Of a stretch of 64,000 nt of DNA, positions 25,478-34,490 are shown piece by piece. The DNA is from Gammaproteobacteria bacterium (lineage in GTDB: Bacteria; Pseudomonadota; Gammaproteobacteria; GCA-001735895). A program made the translations under genes and the position numbers. Position 1 is the first letter of the stretch. The number at the start of each line of letters is the position of its first letter. The notes under the pieces are model-generated. The model had not been told where the DNA came from, did no database searches, and saw only the letters and a program-made list of their open reading frames with translations. The stretch covers positions 907-64,906 of the forward strand of contig JAAESG010000001.1 in assembly GCA_024229615.1 (NCBI GenBank). The letters run 5' to 3'.

Positions 25478-27460
25478 TTAAGGATCTAGCGGATCGAACA
25501 CCGCGTTCGGCCCGGGTGACGTGTCGAACGGGTCGGCCTGATTGCTCCGATTGGGGTACCAGTTGTAGTGCCATGACCACATCACGTAGTACTCGATAAA
25601 GTCACGCACGTTTTCGTTCGGGTGTGCCAGATGCGCCTCGTACAGTTCCTGAGGTGTGCGATTGATGTCATCGCTATCCATGTGCACGTCGAGCGTATCG
25701 TAATCTGCATCGAAAACGATCATGCGTTCACGATTTTTCTTCCAGCGCTTCCACTTAACCGGCTGCTCCTTGCTGTGTCGAATTTTGCCCGAACGGTTAT
25801 GGATGAACTCGTTCAGATAGGCCCTGGCTGCATGCGACAGTTTCAGGCGACCATCGAAATTGTCGGCAGTGTACTGGTATCCGTTTTCGACCGTGCCGCC
25901 ATCGGCTAACCCCTCGAACCTTTGCCAGAAAAAGTCGGCCTCGGCTACGTGTGGAGCACCGACATAGAACTTCCAGGCATCCTCAAATGGAATTTTATAT
26001 TCCTTGTTCGCATCCGAGCCCCAATCGAATCGATACACGTATACCGGTATCCGCGGTTTGGCCTGAGACAGGTTTCGCGCAAGGTTTTGCGCACCCAGAT
26101 AATTATTCAGTTCATCGATCAACTCGGTACCGAACTTGTAGTTAGCCATGAATTCTGCCGGACTGTCGCCCATGGTCGCGAGAAAGTCCAGCAACCACGA
26201 GGGTCCGCCGTCATTGATGGCTTCGTCGACCAGTGTTTCCAGTGATTTACCCTGTTCAAAGTTATACGGCCAATAGGCATTCCATGCGTTGTTTTCGTTT
26301 TTGGTGGTACCTATCACGGTTGGTTTAGGAAAACCGTTTCCGTTTGAGAAATCAGCAAAACTGATATTATCCGGCAGCACATAGCCGTCACCGATGGTGT
26401 AAACGAATTCGGGTCGGTTCGCCGACTTCTGTACCATAGGCGGCGGTACCCATGCATTGCCCGAGACAATATCGTCGCGATAAAAATCACCCCAGTTGAT
26501 TGAACCCCAGTATCCATTCCAGTAAACGTCGCGGATTTCCGCCGCGGTCTTGCCGTATAAGTAATCACGAATCTCGTCATTGCTCATACCATCGGCCAGG
26601 GTCTTGGCAGCCGGTGTATCGACAGCCAGACCATCGCCGACAAGCAGGTTGTACAGTGCCTGTTTTGAGGATTTGGTCGCAGCGGCAACTGGTCTGATTC
26701 CGGGATAGTTGCTCTCCATGATCGCCTTGTGGAACAGATTCTTCGCCAGCGGTGTGTGCATAAGGTAGGAAACGTTTTGTGCGCCGGCGGATGCTCCGGC
26801 GATCGTGACGTTGCGGGGATCGCCGCCGAAGCGCCTGATATTTCTTTTGACCCATTGCAGCGCTTTGACCTGGTCGAGTAAACCATAGTTACCCGAATCG
26901 TCGATACGGTTGTCGGTTTTCAGCGATGGATGCGAAAACCAGCCCATCACGCCGACGCGATAGTTGATGGAAACGACCAAGGCGTTGTAGTTTTTTGCCA
27001 CGGTGTACCACGAACCATCTCCAGAACCGCCCGTGTTGCTGCCCCCGTGGATGTAAAAGAACACCGGCAACAAGCGGTGATCGTCGTCGTCCCGCTCGTC
27101 GTCGTCATCGTCATCATGACCCTGGTACTGTGATTGCGGTTGCCAGACATTCAGGTATAAACAGTCCTCACTGCCGCCTCTGCCCTGGTGGCACCTGCTG
27201 CCGAATTCGCTGGCGTCCCTGATGCCTTCCCAGGATTCGGGATCCTGGGGTGCTTTCCAGCGTAGATCGCCGGTGGGGGGTCGAGCGTAGGGAATACCCT
27301 TGTAGGCGATAACGTCGAATTCTTCCACCAGGGTGCCCTGCACCAATCCCGATCGGGTAGGGACGACGGTATCGGTCGAAGGTCGGTCCCCGGCAAATGA
27401 AAATATCGAGTAAACCAGCAATAAAATTGCGGAAACGCTTAAATATGAGTGCTTTTTCAT
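25478..27460 (-). CDS. secreted type-B carboxylesterase/lipase family protein with poly-Asp insertion
   Basis: Signal peptide; GASAG nucleophile elbow; EDCLYLNV oxyanion region; acidic insert QGHDDDDDDERDDDDH. Confidence 0.8.
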   Translation of the reverse strand: MKKHSYLSVSAILLLVYSIFSFAGDRPSTDTVVPTRSGLVQGTLVEEFDVIAYKGIPYARPPTGDLRWKAPQDPESWEGIRDASEFGSRCHQGRGGSEDCLYLNVWQPQSQYQGHDDDDDDERDDDDHRLLPVFFYIHGGSNTGGSGDGSWYTVAKNYNALVVSINYRVGVMGWFSHPSLKTDNRIDDSGNYGLLDQVKALQWVKRNIRRFGGDPRNVTIAGASAGAQNVSYLMHTPLAKNLFHKAIMESNYPGIRPVAAATKSSKQALYNLLVGDGLAVDTPAAKTLADGMSNDEIRDYLYGKTAAEIRDVYWNGYWGSINWGDFYRDDIVSGNAWVPPPMVQKSANRPEFVYTIGDGYVLPDNISFADFSNGNGFPKPTVIGTTKNENNAWNAYWPYNFEQGKSLETLVDEAINDGGPSWLLDFLATMGDSPAEFMANYKFGTELIDELNNYLGAQNLARNLSQAKPRIPVYVYRFDWGSDANKEYKIPFEDAWKFYVGAPHVAEADFFWQRFEGLADGGTVENGYQYTADNFDGRLKLSHAARAYLNEFIHNRSGKIRHSKEQPVKWKRWKKNRERMIVFDADYDTLDVHMDSDDINRTPQELYEAHLAHPNENVRDFIEYYVMWSWHYNWYPNRSNQADPFDTSPGPNAVFDPLDP

Positions 27461-27720
27461 GAAACTCCTCCTATTTATCAGTCAATTATCTGTTGTAGCC
27501 GGATGTTTTTGTTTTTATAGAAAGACAGGTTGCTATGTGTTTCACACTGTTAAGGAAGTTGAACGGGATCAGGCGTTTCTTTGAAGAAGACCTGAGGTTC
27601 GAGCTCTTCCCTGGGTTCAGTTTTTTGTTAATCTCCCTGTCCTTGGAATGACGAGGGTTTATTTCATCAGATTTGTTCCTCGCCAGTCAACCACCGGGGT
27701 GCATCTACCTTGCCGGTAGT

Positions 27721-27742
27721 GCAGTCATGCATGCATGACTGC
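27721..27742. repeat. perfect 22-bp palindrome GCAGTCATGCATGCATGACTGC
   Basis: Seen directly. 27 nt downstream of the CBS gene stop, 260 bp upstream of the esterase start. Confidence 0.6.
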
Positions 27743-27768
27743 TGTGCTGACAGGCGGGAATAAGCCGG

Positions 27769-28176
27769 TCAGAGCAGGCGATCGCGAATGCCGTGCAACA
27801 CGATATCGGTGTATCCGACGATACCGACCACCTTGCGGTTGTCGACCACCGGGGCGCGACCGATGCCGAAGTTTTCGAACAGGCGCGCACAATAGCGAAT
27901 ATCCATCTCCGGATCCACGCTGATCACTGGCTTCGACATGATTTCGTAGATATTGACTCGCTCGGCCGACTTATCCCTGGCCAGAACCTTCTTCGCAATA
28001 TCGGATAACAAGACGATTCCGTATTCGTCGTTCTCATGGCGGGTATCGACGATGAAACACTTGGATTCGGGATGTATCGACTTTTTTAGGACATCTGCTA
28101 CGGTGTCCATGCCATCGACGAGATCGAAATCCGGAGTCATGACGTCCTTAACGCGAATGATGACTTTCTCACTCAT
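27769..28176 (-). CDS. CBS-domain pair protein
   Basis: Two CBS motifs (VKDVMTPDFDLV..., ...IYEIMSKPVISV...). Confidence 0.8.
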   Translation of the reverse strand: MSEKVIIRVKDVMTPDFDLVDGMDTVADVLKKSIHPESKCFIVDTRHENDEYGIVLLSDIAKKVLARDKSAERVNIYEIMSKPVISVDPEMDIRYCARLFENFGIGRAPVVDNRKVVGIVGYTDIVLHGIRDRLL

Positions 28177-28523
28177 ATCTCTTCCTCAACAATTTCTGCC
28201 AGCTTGCTTACCTGATGTGACACTCCGACCGCATCCTCAACATCGATGCTGAATGCGATGCCGGAACCCGGGCTGGCGTCGAAGTTCCCGGCGACCTCGA
28301 TGGTTTCGAGAATTTCCCGGCACATGTGTTCTTCGACCAGTAGTAAAACCACATCTCGCTGAGCTTCCAGGTTCAGTCCGAGAAAAGTTTTGCTAATCTG
28401 CATACCTTCACCTCGAGCGCTGGAGATCACAGTTGAGCCGGTGGCACCGTTATCGCGCGCAGCTTCGACGATCTTATCAGTGATCGAGTCCTCGGTCAGT
28501 GCGATGATTAATTTAAAATGCAT
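28173..28523 (-). CDS. P-II (GlnB)-like signal-transduction protein
   Basis: 116 aa, ferredoxin-like beta-alpha-beta double fold with T-loop-like segment, PII-like. Overlaps the CBS gene by 4 nt. Confidence 0.65.
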   Translation of the reverse strand: MHFKLIIALTEDSITDKIVEAARDNGATGSTVISSARGEGMQISKTFLGLNLEAQRDVVLLLVEEHMCREILETIEVAGNFDASPGSGIAFSIDVEDAVGVSHQVSKLAEIVEEEI

Positions 28524-28536
28524 GGCGATTTCTCTT

Positions 28537-29316
28537 TTAAGTTATGGGTTTGTTGCTGCGCCGATTACGCCATTCGGACAATTGGGCGTAGGCTAGCACA
28601 GACATAATCGGAAAAAGACTGGCGAAGGCGATCAGGCCAAAGCCGTCGAGTAACGGGTTACGACCCGGCACGGTGCTGGCTAGTCCGAGCCCGAGAGCAG
28701 CAACCAGTGGAACCGTTACGGTCGAGGTGGTGACACCGCCCGAATCATAGGCGAGCGCAATTATCATGCGTGGTGCGAACATAGTTTGTGCCAGCACCAA
28801 CACGTAACCGCTAATAATGTACCAGTAGAGTGGGGTGCCGGTGATGATTCGGAACACGCCCAGTGCGATACCGATAGCAACGCCTATCGCGACCGCGATG
28901 CGCAATCCCCAGGTTCCGATACTGCCGGCCGAGACCTGGTTTGCCTTAATCGCCACAGCCAGTAACGACGGTTCGGCGATGGTGGTTGAAAATCCGATGG
29001 CGAAGGCGAATAGGTAGACCCACTGGTAGTCCCACCATTGTAGAATCCTGCCGACATCGTCACCGGCGATGAAGACTGGATCGGTCAACTGTTGCGCCAT
29101 CAGCCGTCCAAGCGGGAACAGTGCCGCCTGCAGACCCTCGAGGAAAAAACCCAGTCCCAGCAACACCAGCAGGAAGCCGGTAAGAATTTTTTTCAGGTTG
29201 GGGATGGGTTTGCGCAGGATAAACAACTGGAATCCGAAAATAACCAACGCGATCGGTAAGACATCCCAGACGGTTGCTGCGATCGCATAAATCAGGTCTG
29301 TCAGGATGTGTATCAT
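28537..29316 (-). CDS. DUF1538 family integral membrane protein
   Basis: Multi-TM; paralogous to 29324-30055 (shared GVTTSTxTVPLVxALGxGLAS and [11 protein letters not shown] segments). Confidence 0.75.
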   Translation of the reverse strand: MIHILTDLIYAIAATVWDVLPIALVIFGFQLFILRKPIPNLKKILTGFLLVLLGLGFFLEGLQAALFPLGRLMAQQLTDPVFIAGDDVGRILQWWDYQWVYLFAFAIGFSTTIAEPSLLAVAIKANQVSAGSIGTWGLRIAVAIGVAIGIALGVFRIITGTPLYWYIISGYVLVLAQTMFAPRMIIALAYDSGGVTTSTVTVPLVAALGLGLASTVPGRNPLLDGFGLIAFASLFPIMSVLAYAQLSEWRNRRSNKPIT

Positions 29317-29323
29317 GGGCGCG

Positions 29324-30055
29324 TCATACCAGCATGCCGTAGCCCATGACGAATATCATCGGAGTCAGCGACGCGAATGCGATCAACCCGAAGCCGTCGA
29401 TCATCGGGTTGCGTCCCTTGATTGAACTTGCCAGGCCTACTCCCAGCGCAGTGACCAGAGGAACCGTAATCGTAGAAGTCGTGACGCCACCGGAATCATA
29501 AGCGATGCCGACTATCTCTTTGGGCGCAAACACGGTCATGATCACGACCCCCAGGTATCCGACTACGATCAGGTATTGAATCGGCCAACCCATGACGATG
29601 CGAAACACCCCGATCATGATGGCGATACCAACTGAAATCGCCACTGTTAGTCGTAAACCGGTGGCATAAGAGTTGAGCGACGGTGGACTGTTTTCAATCA
29701 TACCGCCATTGGCGGCGACAATTGCCGCTTCGTCGGCGACCGCGATCAGGGCTGGTTCGGCGATGGTGGTGCCAAAACCCAGTGCAAAGGCAAAACACAA
29801 CAGCCAGAAGATATTACCCTTGCTCGCGAAAGCATTGGCCATGCTCTCGCCGATGGGGAACAAGCCCATGTTCAAGCCCTGAACAAACAGGGTTAAACCG
29901 ATCACGACAAATAGTATGCCAACTGCGATTTCGCCGAAATTCGGAATGGGTTGCTGTAATACTGCGAATTGGAAAAATCCGATGACAACGATGATGGGGA
30001 GTAGATCGCGCAGGCTGTCAAATAGTGAGATCCATACCACCTTCAGTGATTTCAT
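29324..30055 (-). CDS. DUF1538 family integral membrane protein
   Basis: Paralogue of the downstream gene; first gene of a 4-gene operon. Confidence 0.75.
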
Positions 30056-30541
30056 GTAAGCCCATTTATGAAATTCTTATTTGGCTGACTATATCAGGGC
30101 ATCGAGTACAGGCCTATGACGAATATCAATAAACCGATCGCCAGCGAATGTCGGTTGCCTTGACACTCGAAATTACGGTCGAACAAAGAAGATGCTTGTT
30201 TACATGTTTAAAACCAGGTTGTTTTGGGTAATGAAATCCGAGAAATGTGACGATGTCGATTGCGGCGTCATTCCTGATTAAAGACCTCGAAGCGGCGTGC
30301 AGGGTTCTGGGTATCGAAGCAAAATTGCTGACTTATCGGCGCCAGTATTATCTCTACGCGACACAACCATCGGCACGGCTGGCACTGGTATATCCGCTTG
30401 AGCGGAAACTGTCGAATCACGGCCTTGCAGCACCCGTCTCTGAGCGGTCGGTTAGCGGTTGGATTGTCGGAGTATGAATCCTTAGCTGACTTTGCGCAGT
30501 CGTTGCTCGCTGGTCTGCCGATATATGTCCCTTATTCGCTG

Positions 30542-31501
30542 CTACGGGACTGCTCTTTGACCTGAGGCCGCGACGCGTTCGCGCCAGGCGGTGATAACCC
30601 CGGCCGAGCCGATTAGTGTCATACCGATCAGGGCCTGCCCCGTCGGCCACTGGTCGAAAATCACGCGGCTCCAGAATGCAGCAAAAATCAGGTAGCTGAA
30701 ATCGATGGGTGCGAGCCAGCTGGCATCGGCGGTCTGGTAGGCGCGGCTGAGACAGATATTACCGGTCAGGTTGAGTACCGACGCAAACAGCGCAAAGCCG
30801 GCCACCAGCAGGGTTAATTCCGGCCAGCCGATGGCGACGAAGGGCATGTTGTCGCGAATTTCGGTCGACGGTGGAAACACCGACAACAGGAAAATTCCAA
30901 GCATACCGACAGCGATAAAAACGATTCCCACCGCAAATGCCAGGGCCAGGGTGCTTTCCTGGCGACAGGCTTTGCGTAAGGTCAAGATATTGGTTGCATA
31001 GAAAAAGCCCGCCAGGATGGGCAACACTTGCACCGCCGAAAAGTTATCATCCCAGGGGCTGAGAATAAAAGCGGCCCCGATACCCCCCAGCAAAAGGGCC
31101 GCGATTCGCCAGCGTCCGACGGATTCACCCAGAATCGGACCCGCCAGTAGCGATACAAACAGCGGGTAGGTATAGAGCCCGGCCGCCATCTGCGGCACTG
31201 TCAGGTAGGGTGCCCCGGCAAAAAAGCAAAACATGCAAACCGTTAATAAAGCAGCGCGCAGATAAACCGGTCGCCAGTTGTCGGGTCTGATCAAGCTGAT
31301 GCCGCCACTCATCAATGCGAGCACGACGATGAAGCTGAGATTGCCAATCGAACGCAGTGTTTGAAACTGCCAGAAGGAAGTGTCCGCGGACATTAACTTG
31401 ACCAGCGAATCCTGCAATGCGAGTGCGAAAACACCCGTTAATAAAAGGATGAGCGCGAGTAGCGGACGATCTTCACCTGGTTGTTGGAACAGGCTTTTCA
31501 T
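30542..31501 (-). CDS. DMT superfamily (EamA) transporter
   Basis: 10 TM helices, two EamA repeats. Confidence 0.75.
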   Translation of the reverse strand: MKSLFQQPGEDRPLLALILLLTGVFALALQDSLVKLMSADTSFWQFQTLRSIGNLSFIVVLALMSGGISLIRPDNWRPVYLRAALLTVCMFCFFAGAPYLTVPQMAAGLYTYPLFVSLLAGPILGESVGRWRIAALLLGGIGAAFILSPWDDNFSAVQVLPILAGFFYATNILTLRKACRQESTLALAFAVGIVFIAVGMLGIFLLSVFPPSTEIRDNMPFVAIGWPELTLLVAGFALFASVLNLTGNICLSRAYQTADASWLAPIDFSYLIFAAFWSRVIFDQWPTGQALIGMTLIGSAGVITAWRERVAASGQRAVP

Positions 31502-33281: not shown

Positions 33282-34490
33282 TCAGTCCTCGACGAGGTGG
33301 CCGTAATGTTTGTAAAACAGACGCAGCCAGAAGGGTGTGAGCAGAGTTGTGTAGGCGATGACGATAACCACAGTGGCATAGATTTCGTGGTTGAACAGCC
33401 CGGTATGACGGCCAATCTCGGCGAATACCAGGCCGACCTCACCGCGTGGCACCATGGACATTCCGATGATGATACGACGCGCGAGTTTTTCTCGAATCAG
33501 CAATCCTGCGAGAACTTTGGAGAGGATCGCCACGCCGGCGAGGGTTACAGAAAATATCCAGAAAAAAACCGAACTCAAATCCAGCGAACTCAAATCCAGC
33601 GACAGCCCGACCGTGACAAAGAAAACGGGTGTGCACAGCTGAATCACCGGTTTCATCTGGTTGTGTACGCGAGATGAAAATTCCGGATCAGCTTTAAGCG
33701 CGACACCGAAAGGAAGAAAGAAGCGGCGCGACAGCGCGAGCCCAGTAGCAAAACCACCGAGCAATTGCGGAATCCCAATGGCATGCGACAACCAGGCCAT
33801 GAAAAGCACCAGCGATACGATTGTAGTCGGGACCATGCCGGGAGTTTCGCTGACCGACTCCCAGCGATTGATGACGTAACTGATCGTCTTCGCCATTGCC
33901 GGTGCGACCATGAAGAAAACTGCCATGAACAGCAGGATTTTCGAGGTGCCAATCAGGTCTACCGAGCCGCTGGTAATGAAATTGAACAGAATCGCCAGCA
34001 GCAGTACGCCCATGATATCGTCCAGTACTGCAGCGCCCAGGATGATGTGCCCCTCGTGGCTCTGGTCGCGGTCGAGGTCGGTCAGGGTTCGCATGGTAAT
34101 ACCGATACTGGTTGCGGTCATGGTTCCCGCAATGAGTAGCGAGACCAGGAATTCGAGCTCGAAGCCGTAATAGCTGATCGTGAAACAACTCGCAAACGGT
34201 AGTAAAAATCCTGCGATTGCAACGATGACAGATTTGGTCCCGGCGCTTGCGAGCTCACCGATATCGGTCTCCAGCCCGACTTCGAACAACAGCAGGATGA
34301 TGCCGATTTCAGCCAGCACCCAGATCAATCCATCGGCTTCGATGAAGCCTAGTAGTGACGGTCCCAGGATAACCCCGGCAATAATTTCACCGATCACCGT
34401 GGGTACTTTAATATAAGCCGCCAGTTCGCCCATGACGCGTGCGGCGATCAGGATCATCGCGACTTGCAAAATGGTCGTCGAAGTATCCAT
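33282..34490 (-). CDS. monovalent cation:proton antiporter (CPA family, Kef/NhaP-like)
   Basis: N-terminus MDTSTTILQVAMILIAARVMGELAAYIKVPTVIGEIIAGVILGPS typical of CPA antiporters; 12-13 TM helices. No Shine-Dalgarno sequence upstream. Confidence 0.8.
   Translation of the reverse strand: MDTSTTILQVAMILIAARVMGELAAYIKVPTVIGEIIAGVILGPSLLGFIEADGLIWVLAEIGIILLLFEVGLETDIGELASAGTKSVIVAIAGFLLPFASCFTISYYGFELEFLVSLLIAGTMTATSIGITMRTLTDLDRDQSHEGHIILGAAVLDDIMGVLLLAILFNFITSGSVDLIGTSKILLFMAVFFMVAPAMAKTISYVINRWESVSETPGMVPTTIVSLVLFMAWLSHAIGIPQLLGGFATGLALSRRFFLPFGVALKADPEFSSRVHNQMKPVIQLCTPVFFVTVGLSLDLSSLDLSSVFFWIFSVTLAGVAILSKVLAGLLIREKLARRIIIGMSMVPRGEVGLVFAEIGRHTGLFNHEIYATVVIVIAYTTLLTPFWLRLFYKHYGHLVED

Follow-up and report, generated by a model that had tools for sequence, protein, structure and literature searches.

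A widely conserved operon encoding a UmpAB-type DUF1538 pair, a PII-like protein and a CBS-pair protein in a gammaproteobacterium

A four-gene operon lies on the minus strand of a 64,000-nucleotide stretch of DNA (the window) taken from a contig of a gammaproteobacterium (GenBank assembly GCA_024229615.1, contig JAAESG010000001.1). It encodes two DUF1538 membrane subunits (A, umpA-like, and B, umpB-like), a noncanonical PII-like protein and a stand-alone CBS-pair protein. The operon is real and widely conserved, and its transporter is a new member of the known DUF1538 (UmpAB) family. On balance, we favor by a modest degree the reading that the four products constitute a UmpAB-type monovalent cation (Na+/K+/Li+)/H+ antiporter that is plugged by the PII-like protein and tuned by adenylates. 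A broader proposal, which we put forward tentatively and hold at somewhat below even chances, is that DUF1538 proteins represent a distinct structural class with antiparallel seven-helix halves and a near-universal noncanonical PII-like partner, to which an AMP-type CBS protein has been added here. In the literature searched, we found no description of the obligate PII-like partner, of the CBS add-on or of the predicted antiparallel split architecture, and the searched papers that mention DUF1538 make no link to PII or CBS.

Gene content and conservation of the operon

The locus had been described in an earlier note, made from the sequence without database searches, as DUF1538-DUF1538-PII-like-CBS-pair. 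This gene content was confirmed by four consecutive minus-strand open reading frames (ORFs) whose Pfam assignments agree with it (Table 1). The two DUF1538 proteins are paralogues with 44% identity. The same note had the genes coupled by 4-nt overlaps, which holds for the PII/CBS junction (ATGA), whereas A and B are separated by a gap of 7 nt and B and the PII-like gene by a gap of 13 nt.

Table 1. Features of the operon and its upstream region (window coordinates)
Feature	Coordinates	Strand	Basis or remark
A, umpA-like, DUF1538 membrane subunit (243 aa)	29324..30055	-	ORF, Pfam DUF1538, NCBIfam UmpA
B, umpB-like, DUF1538 membrane subunit (259 aa)	28537..29316	-	ORF, Pfam DUF1538, NCBIfam UmpB
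PII-like protein, noncanonical (116 aa)	28173..28523	-	Pfam P-II, AlphaFold2 fold, Foldseek
Stand-alone CBS-pair (Bateman module) protein (135 aa)	27769..28176	-	Pfam CBS, two stretches
Candidate promoter/operator region	30088..30120	-	~35-65 nt upstream of the umpA-like start; conserved block

One genome per GTDB species was scanned with a six-sequence DUF1538 alignment, which yielded at least 588 relatives. The best 80 loci, whose A orthologs are 65 to 91% identical to window A, were kept, and their gene order was read by tblastn with the four window proteins. The colinear, same-strand order A-B-PII-CBS is present in 69 of these 80 species-representative genomes, a recurrence well above what chance would give, and six more loci end at contig edges. 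The order is thus found in 69 of 74 evaluable genomes, while five (L013, L021, L024, L034, and L056) lack one or more members despite having room for them. The earlier note had proposed gene-order co-occurrence across genomes as a check on the operon, with absence of the four genes as a unit elsewhere as the refuting outcome; the proposal came through this comparison intact.

Among the incomplete loci, A stands alone in one Thiomargarita and one Parabeggiatoa metagenome-assembled genome (MAG), only A-B is present in a second Thiomargarita MAG, and A-B-PII without CBS occurs in Thiomicrorhabdus and Thiosulfatimonas. Unrelated genes lie downstream of the solitary A or of A-B in the Thiomargarita and Parabeggiatoa MAGs L013 and L021 and in L056. 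The incomplete loci of these giant sulfur bacteria may reflect decay of the cassette, rearrangement or assembly problems.

The junctions between the genes are tight across the loci. The PII and CBS genes overlap by 4 nt in 50 of 66 loci and by 1 nt in another 9 (59/66 together), and the A-B junction is of the -4 or -1 type in 48 of 75. The surroundings of the cassette vary: the genes flanking it in the window recur in the three closest relatives only, and its neighbors in an Arenicellales MAG are wholly different. The flank comparison found no conserved third gene traveling with the cassette, and no carbon- or nitrogen-assimilation gene is conserved beside it among the loci compared. Because the gene order is kept while the flanks vary, the cassette is the unit under selection. 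Coincidental adjacency of four functionally unlinked genes, for which the few loci without one or more members could be cited, is effectively already refuted by the conserved order despite changing flanks, by the overlapping junctions and by the existence of gene fusions (see below).

The taxonomic range of the best 80 loci covers many gammaproteobacterial orders, Beta- and Alphaproteobacteria, Nitrospirota, Desulfobacterota (cable bacteria) and Bacteroidota (Saprospiraceae), and marine, sediment and sulfur-oxidizing lineages predominate among the orthologs found. Culturable carriers include Sedimenticola selenatireducens, Colwellia demingiae, Photobacterium rosenbergii and Aliikangiella marina. 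A orthologs with 65 to 77% identity to the gammaproteobacterial protein are encoded across phyla, in Nitrospirota (L028 and L043), Saprospirales/Saprospiraceae (L072 and L081), Desulfobacterota (L052, L063, L082, and L083) and Rhodospirillaceae (L075), and in three of these loci the cassette is complete and its flanks vary. This combination suggests that the cassette has been transferred horizontally across phyla.

The DUF1538 membrane subunits

Both membrane proteins match the Pfam DUF1538 family (PF07556; gathering score, 22.6) over their full length, A with an E value of 2.2e-70 (236.7 bits) and B with 1.1e-67 (227.9 bits). Among the NCBIfam equivalog models for UmpA and UmpB (NF041627/NF041628), the first of which is named "Na,Li,K/H(+) antiporter subunit UmpA," A is matched best by UmpA (366.3 bits versus 200 for UmpB; equivalog cut-off, 490) and B by UmpB (332.1 bits versus 211 for UmpA; cut-off, 500), in each case below the equivalog cut-off. 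Orthologs from ten other genomes score 369 to 401 bits, all under the cut-off, and no strict UmpA or UmpB equivalog was found among the cluster representatives or orthologs scored. The family is abundant, with 2,982 clusters of the membrane subunit at 50% identity, and the membrane subunit and the PII-like protein each had thousands of close homologs among the environmental sequences scored.

The paired DUF1538 genes umpAB of Halomonas zhaodongensis rescue Escherichia coli KNabc only if expressed together (Meng et al. 2017, PMC5484666). UmpAB confers Na+ and Li+ tolerance, UmpA and UmpB co-immunoprecipitate as a heterodimer, and everted vesicles display pH-dependent Na+, Li+ and K+/H+ antiport with K0.5 values of 0.26 to 0.46 mM (PMC5484666). 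The earlier note had regarded DUF1538 as lacking an assigned substrate; this view is superseded, since a DUF1538 pair has been known as a Na+(Li+,K+)/H+ antiporter since 2017 and UmpA and UmpB are the best NCBIfam matches here. Its prediction of a heteromeric permease fits the co-immunoprecipitation of the two Halomonas subunits and the need for both in activity. The cloned Halomonas fragment ended at umpB, and PII, CBS and membrane orientation do not figure in that paper (PMC5484666).

The two Halomonas subunits differ in that UmpA has a longer loop between helices III and IV, while UmpB has a longer loop between helices II and III and a hydrophilic C terminus (PMC5484666). The window proteins share these subunit-specific features: A has a long acidic loop III-IV, and in B the loop II-III is long and the C-terminal tail (RNRRSNK) is basic. 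Because of these shared features and the best match of each protein to its own model, A is assigned to the UmpA type and B to the UmpB type. The shared features also indicate that the duplication that gave rise to A and B is older than the split from the Halomonas lineage.

The distribution of lysine and arginine residues (K+R) points to opposite orientations of the two subunits. The K+R bias, counted as odd minus even loops, is +5 for window A and +5.2 over its orthologs (positive in 80/80), and -7 for window B and -7.05 over its orthologs (negative in 76/76). A has a basic N terminus and a loop 1-2 free of K and R, whereas in B the N terminus is acidic and both loop 1-2 and the C-terminal tail are basic. 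The same pattern is repeated within 19 single-chain A-B fusions, in which the first half has a bias of +7.6 and the second half of -9.8, with an acidic linker of about 29 aa. Given seven helices per half and these opposite biases, the positive-inside rule predicts an N-in/C-out topology for A and N-out/C-in for B, and we infer that A and B form an antiparallel heterodimer, that is, an inverted repeat split over two genes.

An AlphaFold2 model of a fused homolog (P0242) is confident in its membrane part (predicted local distance difference test [pLDDT] score, ~85 to 95; predicted TM-score [pTM], 0.73) and has seven helical segments per half, two of which are broken, at the best-conserved motifs, TTIAEP and DSGGVTTST. 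Among 13 diverse DUF1538 members, E100 and D220 never vary, and D187, R152, T97 and S194 hardly do. Invariant motifs rich in acidic and hydroxyl residues are located at the predicted helix breaks (TTIAEP in helix 3, the helix 6 motif, and DGFG before helix 7). Such conserved acidic and hydroxyl residues at helix breaks are consistent with ion and proton sites.

Searches of all PDB chains with A and with the 13-member DUF1538 profile returned nothing at an E value of ≤10, and a Foldseek comparison of the fused-protein model with the PDB returned TM-scores of ≤0.19 and nothing at an E value of ≤1e-3. VcINDY, EAAT and MATE were listed by Foldseek, all insignificantly, and we claim neither an elevator nor any other known fold. 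An hhalign comparison of helices 1 to 3 with helices 4 to 7 detected no internal repeat inside one DUF1538 domain (probability, 0.2%).

The PII-like and CBS-pair proteins and a proposed mechanism

The association of DUF1538 with PII extends far beyond the best 80 loci. In distant annotated plasmid or chromid loci of Clostridia and Alphaproteobacteria, with DUF1538 identities of 28 to 33%, a PII gene is directly next in five of five cases. Methylocystis and Chelativorans encode a DUF1538 pair followed by a PII protein of 112 to 122 aa, and Paraclostridium, Vescimonas and Peptoclostridium encode a fused DUF1538 protein of about 500 aa followed by a tandem double PII of 222 to 224 aa. All four genes are present in a 64% relative, A-B-PII in a 43% relative, and a fused DUF1538 with a double PII in a 30% relative. 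Dongshaea marina has A-B-PII, and a Campylobacterota-like locus has a fused AB gene followed by a weak-PII gene and a CBS gene. In these last four loci, which belong to intermediate-to-distant relatives, a PII gene again comes directly after DUF1538. Among 72,556 plasmids, the only relative of the PII-like protein adjoins a DUF1538 gene.

Double-PII genes (222 to 228 aa, with two P-II stretches) of Clostridia and another distant lineage overlap a fused DUF1538 gene (about 500 aa) at its end (L088 4707-5375, L090 5515-6189, L091 5484-6152, and L096 4988-5674). At L095 (197-3440), the gene after a 707-aa fused DUF1538 (P0282) encodes an unassigned protein of 375 aa with a faint N-terminal P-II match (E = 0.018).

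Gene fusions bring the two components into one chain. The 50%-identity cluster representatives include many single-chain A-B fusions, and a PII domain follows the B half within the same chain in P0242, P0255, P0267 and P0291 and follows a single DUF1538 domain in P0257. Gene fusion together with synteny at such evolutionary depth provides strong evidence for a physical partnership between PII and the transporter. Moreover, the fusion of PII to the C terminus of B agrees with the predicted cytoplasmic location of that terminus. In fused DUF1538 proteins of 600 to 740 aa, P0282 among them, an insertion of about 80 to 130 aa splits the B half. Another cluster representative, P0243 (724 aa), is a DUF1538-DUF1538 fusion that has a C-terminal cytidylate-kinase-like/AAA_18 nucleotide-binding domain and no PII; this domain may be an alternative nucleotide-sensing module. 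In current genome annotation, the small gene goes under "P-II family nitrogen regulator," a name that is probably misleading beside DUF1538.

The PII-like protein itself matches the Pfam P-II family (PF00543) with an E value of 2.7e-10 (40.9 bits; gathering score, 25). Its AlphaFold2 model, built as a monomer on a shallow alignment, has a beta-alpha-beta-beta-alpha-beta fold with an extra C-terminal helix (pLDDT, 75.6); Foldseek matches the model to PII, GlnK and CPII structures at a probability of 1.0, and a profile of the orthologs reaches archaeal GlnB (E, ~1e-4). The PROSITE signatures PS00496 (T-loop, Y-[KR]-G-[AS]-[AE]-Y) and PS00638 ([ST]-x3-G-[DY]-G-[KR]-[IV]-[FW]-[LIVM]) are absent from the window protein and from 75 of 75 orthologs, while the E. 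coli GlnB control was positive. The B-loop reads PGSGIAF in place of GDGKIF, and the RxR equivalent is missing. The T-loop (residues ~37 to 55) has no Tyr and is about 3 to 4 residues shorter than the canonical loop of ~19 residues, which carries a modifiable Tyr or Ser. Its region (R37-G-E-G ... T46-F-x-G-L ... Q55-R56-D57) is almost invariant across orthologs, as a conserved surface for docking would be.

The C terminus of the PII-like protein is acidic (...EIVEEEI) and has no Cys pair. Its sequence matches to SbtB chains are marginal (E = 0.27 to 0.28), and both by sequence and by the C-terminal redox Cys motif the protein falls outside the SbtB group. It does occupy an analogous, SbtB-type position directly downstream of a transporter gene, in the 69 evaluable genomes with the full order and in the distant loci. 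The GlnK-AmtB and SbtB-SbtA pairs provide a precedent for a PII or PII-like "valve plug." We regard the PII-like protein as the likely plug or sensor that regulates the transporter.

The CBS-pair protein matches the Pfam CBS family (PF00571) in two stretches (1.7e-18, 67.1 bits). The nearest solved relative is the CBS domain of Microcystis CBS-CP12 (PDB 5nmu; E = 3e-23), which aligns with residues 6 to 127 at 38% identity over 122 ungapped residues. A CP12 domain is absent, as the window protein stops at residue 135 and 5nmu has 208 residues. The CBS domain of CBS-CP12 binds AMP but none of ADP, ATP and cAMP, and since this nearest solved relative binds AMP, our best guess is that the CBS protein senses AMP or energy charge. 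Gammaproteobacteria lack diadenylate cyclases to our knowledge, which makes c-di-AMP an unlikely ligand in this lineage. In distant DUF1538 loci, the CBS gene is absent and the PII gene present, and the CBS gene is a clade-specific add-on outside the family-wide core. The idea of two ligand-sensing regulatory subunits, put forward in the earlier note, is strengthened by the B-PII fusions. Nucleotide gating of the transporter is, for its part, inferred.

In the mechanism that we propose, the two homologous seven-helix DUF1538 subunits would insert into the membrane in opposite orientations and form an antiparallel heterodimer, in which the ion and proton sites would be made up of the conserved motifs at the helix breaks. 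The PII-like and CBS proteins would be cytoplasmic and translated from the same mRNA as A and B. The T-loop of the PII-like protein would dock on the cytoplasmic face near the C terminus of subunit B, and the protein would open or plug the transporter depending on the metabolite that it has bound, in the manner of GlnK with AmtB and SbtB with SbtA. The CBS protein, translationally coupled to the PII gene, would add an adenylate input (probably AMP or energy charge), acting either on the PII-like protein or directly on the transporter. The docking, the ligands and the direction of regulation are putative.

Several observations weigh against this mechanism. In E. coli, UmpAB is active by itself (PMC5484666), and the PII-like and CBS proteins are therefore dispensable for basal activity. 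The PII/CBS linkage is known from loci other than Halomonas umpAB. Because A and B score below the equivalog cut-offs (366 against 490 and 332 against 500), the substrate is extrapolated from Halomonas, where its assignment is based on E. coli KNabc complementation and fluorescence-dequenching assays from one laboratory. The PII-like protein has no equivalents of the triphosphate-binding K90, R101 and R103 (I89 and V/S are aligned) and neither PROSITE signature, so that its ligand may be neither ATP nor ADP, and ligand binding and regulatory roles are putative for the PII-like and CBS proteins alike. It is not obvious how a PII trimer would fit a pseudo-twofold heterodimer, unless (AB)3 is the form of the transporter. 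The antiparallel topology is argued from charge bias, and the fused PII domain is poor in the P0242 model. Finally, P0364 (L092 2417-3157) is a distant (38%) solitary DUF1538 protein without an adjacent PII or second DUF1538 gene. This protein may represent a homodimeric form or one of dual topology. Downstream of it lie genes for an unassigned 168-aa protein and a DUF421/YetF protein.

The low equivalog scores leave some room for a different substrate. The DUF1538 pair could be a transporter of bicarbonate, ammonium or another metabolite, with the Na+/H+ antiport in KNabc as a side activity and the PII-like protein as a reporter of carbon, nitrogen or energy status. The characterized transporter partners of PII and PII-like proteins that we know of (AmtB and SbtA) all handle nitrogen or carbon substrates, the PII link is family-wide and includes anaerobic Clostridia, and no solved relative of the fold fixes the substrate class. 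We nevertheless judge this unlikely, at about one chance in several, as the Halomonas homolog shows direct antiport in vesicles with submillimolar K0.5 for Na+, K+ and Li+, and the window proteins carry the subunit-specific indels of that homolog. Further, the cassette travels without conserved carbon- or nitrogen-assimilation neighbors, and Na+ and pH homeostasis is a plausible need in the mostly marine, sediment and sulfur-oxidizing lineages that carry the orthologs.

A role other than gating for the PII-like and CBS proteins is less probable still. From GlnK-AmtB it is well established that PII can be sequestered at the membrane so as to control other targets, and the membrane complex could likewise act as a transceptor that sequesters the PII-like protein for another target; alternatively, the two proteins could be assembly or stability subunits. 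Such roles would fit the function of UmpAB in E. coli without PII and CBS, and the replacement of PII by a cytidylate-kinase-like domain in P0243 shows that the appendage can be an enzyme-like module. The cassette is, however, accompanied by no conserved third gene that might encode such a target, and the PII-B fusion fixes PII at the transporter, where direct action fits better than shuttling. Our preference accordingly stays with a PII-plugged, adenylate-tuned cation/proton antiporter.

Surrounding DNA and comparison with known systems

Upstream of the umpA-like gene, the candidate promoter/operator region contains an extended -10-like element, TGATATAGT (30096..30088, minus strand), and a conserved box, GTCATAGGCCTG (30120..30109, minus strand). 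This block is common to the window and to L004, L006 and L001 despite differing upstream genes. The region was not called by a two-hexamer promoter scan, neither a convincing two-hexamer promoter nor a convincing minus-strand terminator turned up at the operon in the simple scans, and Rfam gave no match at an E value of ≤1 in window positions 27300 to 30700.

Between the cassette and the YchJ/RecQ genes, the window encodes a 660-aa carboxylesterase (PF00135; 25478-27460, minus strand) with an unusual acidic/His-rich insert, HDDDDDDERDDDDH. The gene looks like a window-specific insertion, because YchJ/RecQ directly follow the CBS gene in the closest relatives, L004 to L006. A CPA-type Na_H_Exchanger (PF00999) gene is located 3.2 kb upstream of the cassette (33282-34490, minus strand), and genes of this family are also found near the cassette at L084 (1898-3073) and L024 (8109-10097). 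A general linkage between Na_H_Exchanger genes and the cassette was ruled out, since a relative is present in the flanks of only 3 of 83 loci.

PII proteins rank with the most widely distributed signal transducers, and the transporters known to be their targets serve ammonium and bicarbonate. If the proposed mechanism is true, PII control would reach beyond nitrogen and carbon uptake into cation/proton (Na+/K+/pH) homeostasis; this would be a third class of PII-controlled transport, one that couples salt and pH homeostasis to energy or metabolite status. The PII-like proteins would also form a new PII subfamily, with a ligand set unpredictable from the canonical residues. The DUF1538 family has no solved structure, and it is apparently a clean inverted-repeat transporter kept as two genes, with fused forms alongside. 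This coexistence of a two-gene inverted repeat with fusions makes DUF1538 useful for the study of transporter evolution and a defined target for cryo-electron microscopy.

Compared with Halomonas UmpAB, the window pair shares the adjacency of two paralogous DUF1538 genes, the best matches to the respective models, the subunit-specific loops, the hydrophilic C-terminal tail of B and seven predicted helices per subunit. It differs in scoring below the equivalog cut-offs and in sitting within a conserved four-gene operon. The CBS protein resembles CBS-CP12 and the single CBS-pair (CBSX-type) proteins in its CBS pair, which aligns with that of CBS-CP12 without gaps at 38% identity, whereas its partner is a transporter/PII pair rather than thioredoxin or the Calvin cycle.

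Dual-topology evolution is known from the EmrE-type SMR pairs and the DUF606 pairs, which are paired or fused half-transporters of opposite topology. The DUF1538 genes are likewise tandem homologs with opposite K+R bias that are fused in other lineages. Their halves are larger, with seven helices of which two are broken; their orientation is a prediction from charge, and Foldseek ties the fold to no solved transporter.

The closest regulatory parallels are GlnK-AmtB and SbtB-SbtA, in which, as in the window, a small PII-fold protein with a conserved T-loop is encoded directly after a transporter; sequence matches to SbtB and GlnB are weak, and fold matches to PII, GlnK and CPII are strong. In contrast to those systems, the partner in the window belongs to a cation/proton antiporter family instead of being an ammonium channel or a bicarbonate symporter, and it is a heterodimer of half-transporters instead of a homotrimer. 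The PII-like protein also differs from its counterparts in lacking the PROSITE signatures, the K90/R101/R103 equivalents and the C-terminal Cys motif of SbtB, and a second sensor, the CBS protein, is co-encoded with it.

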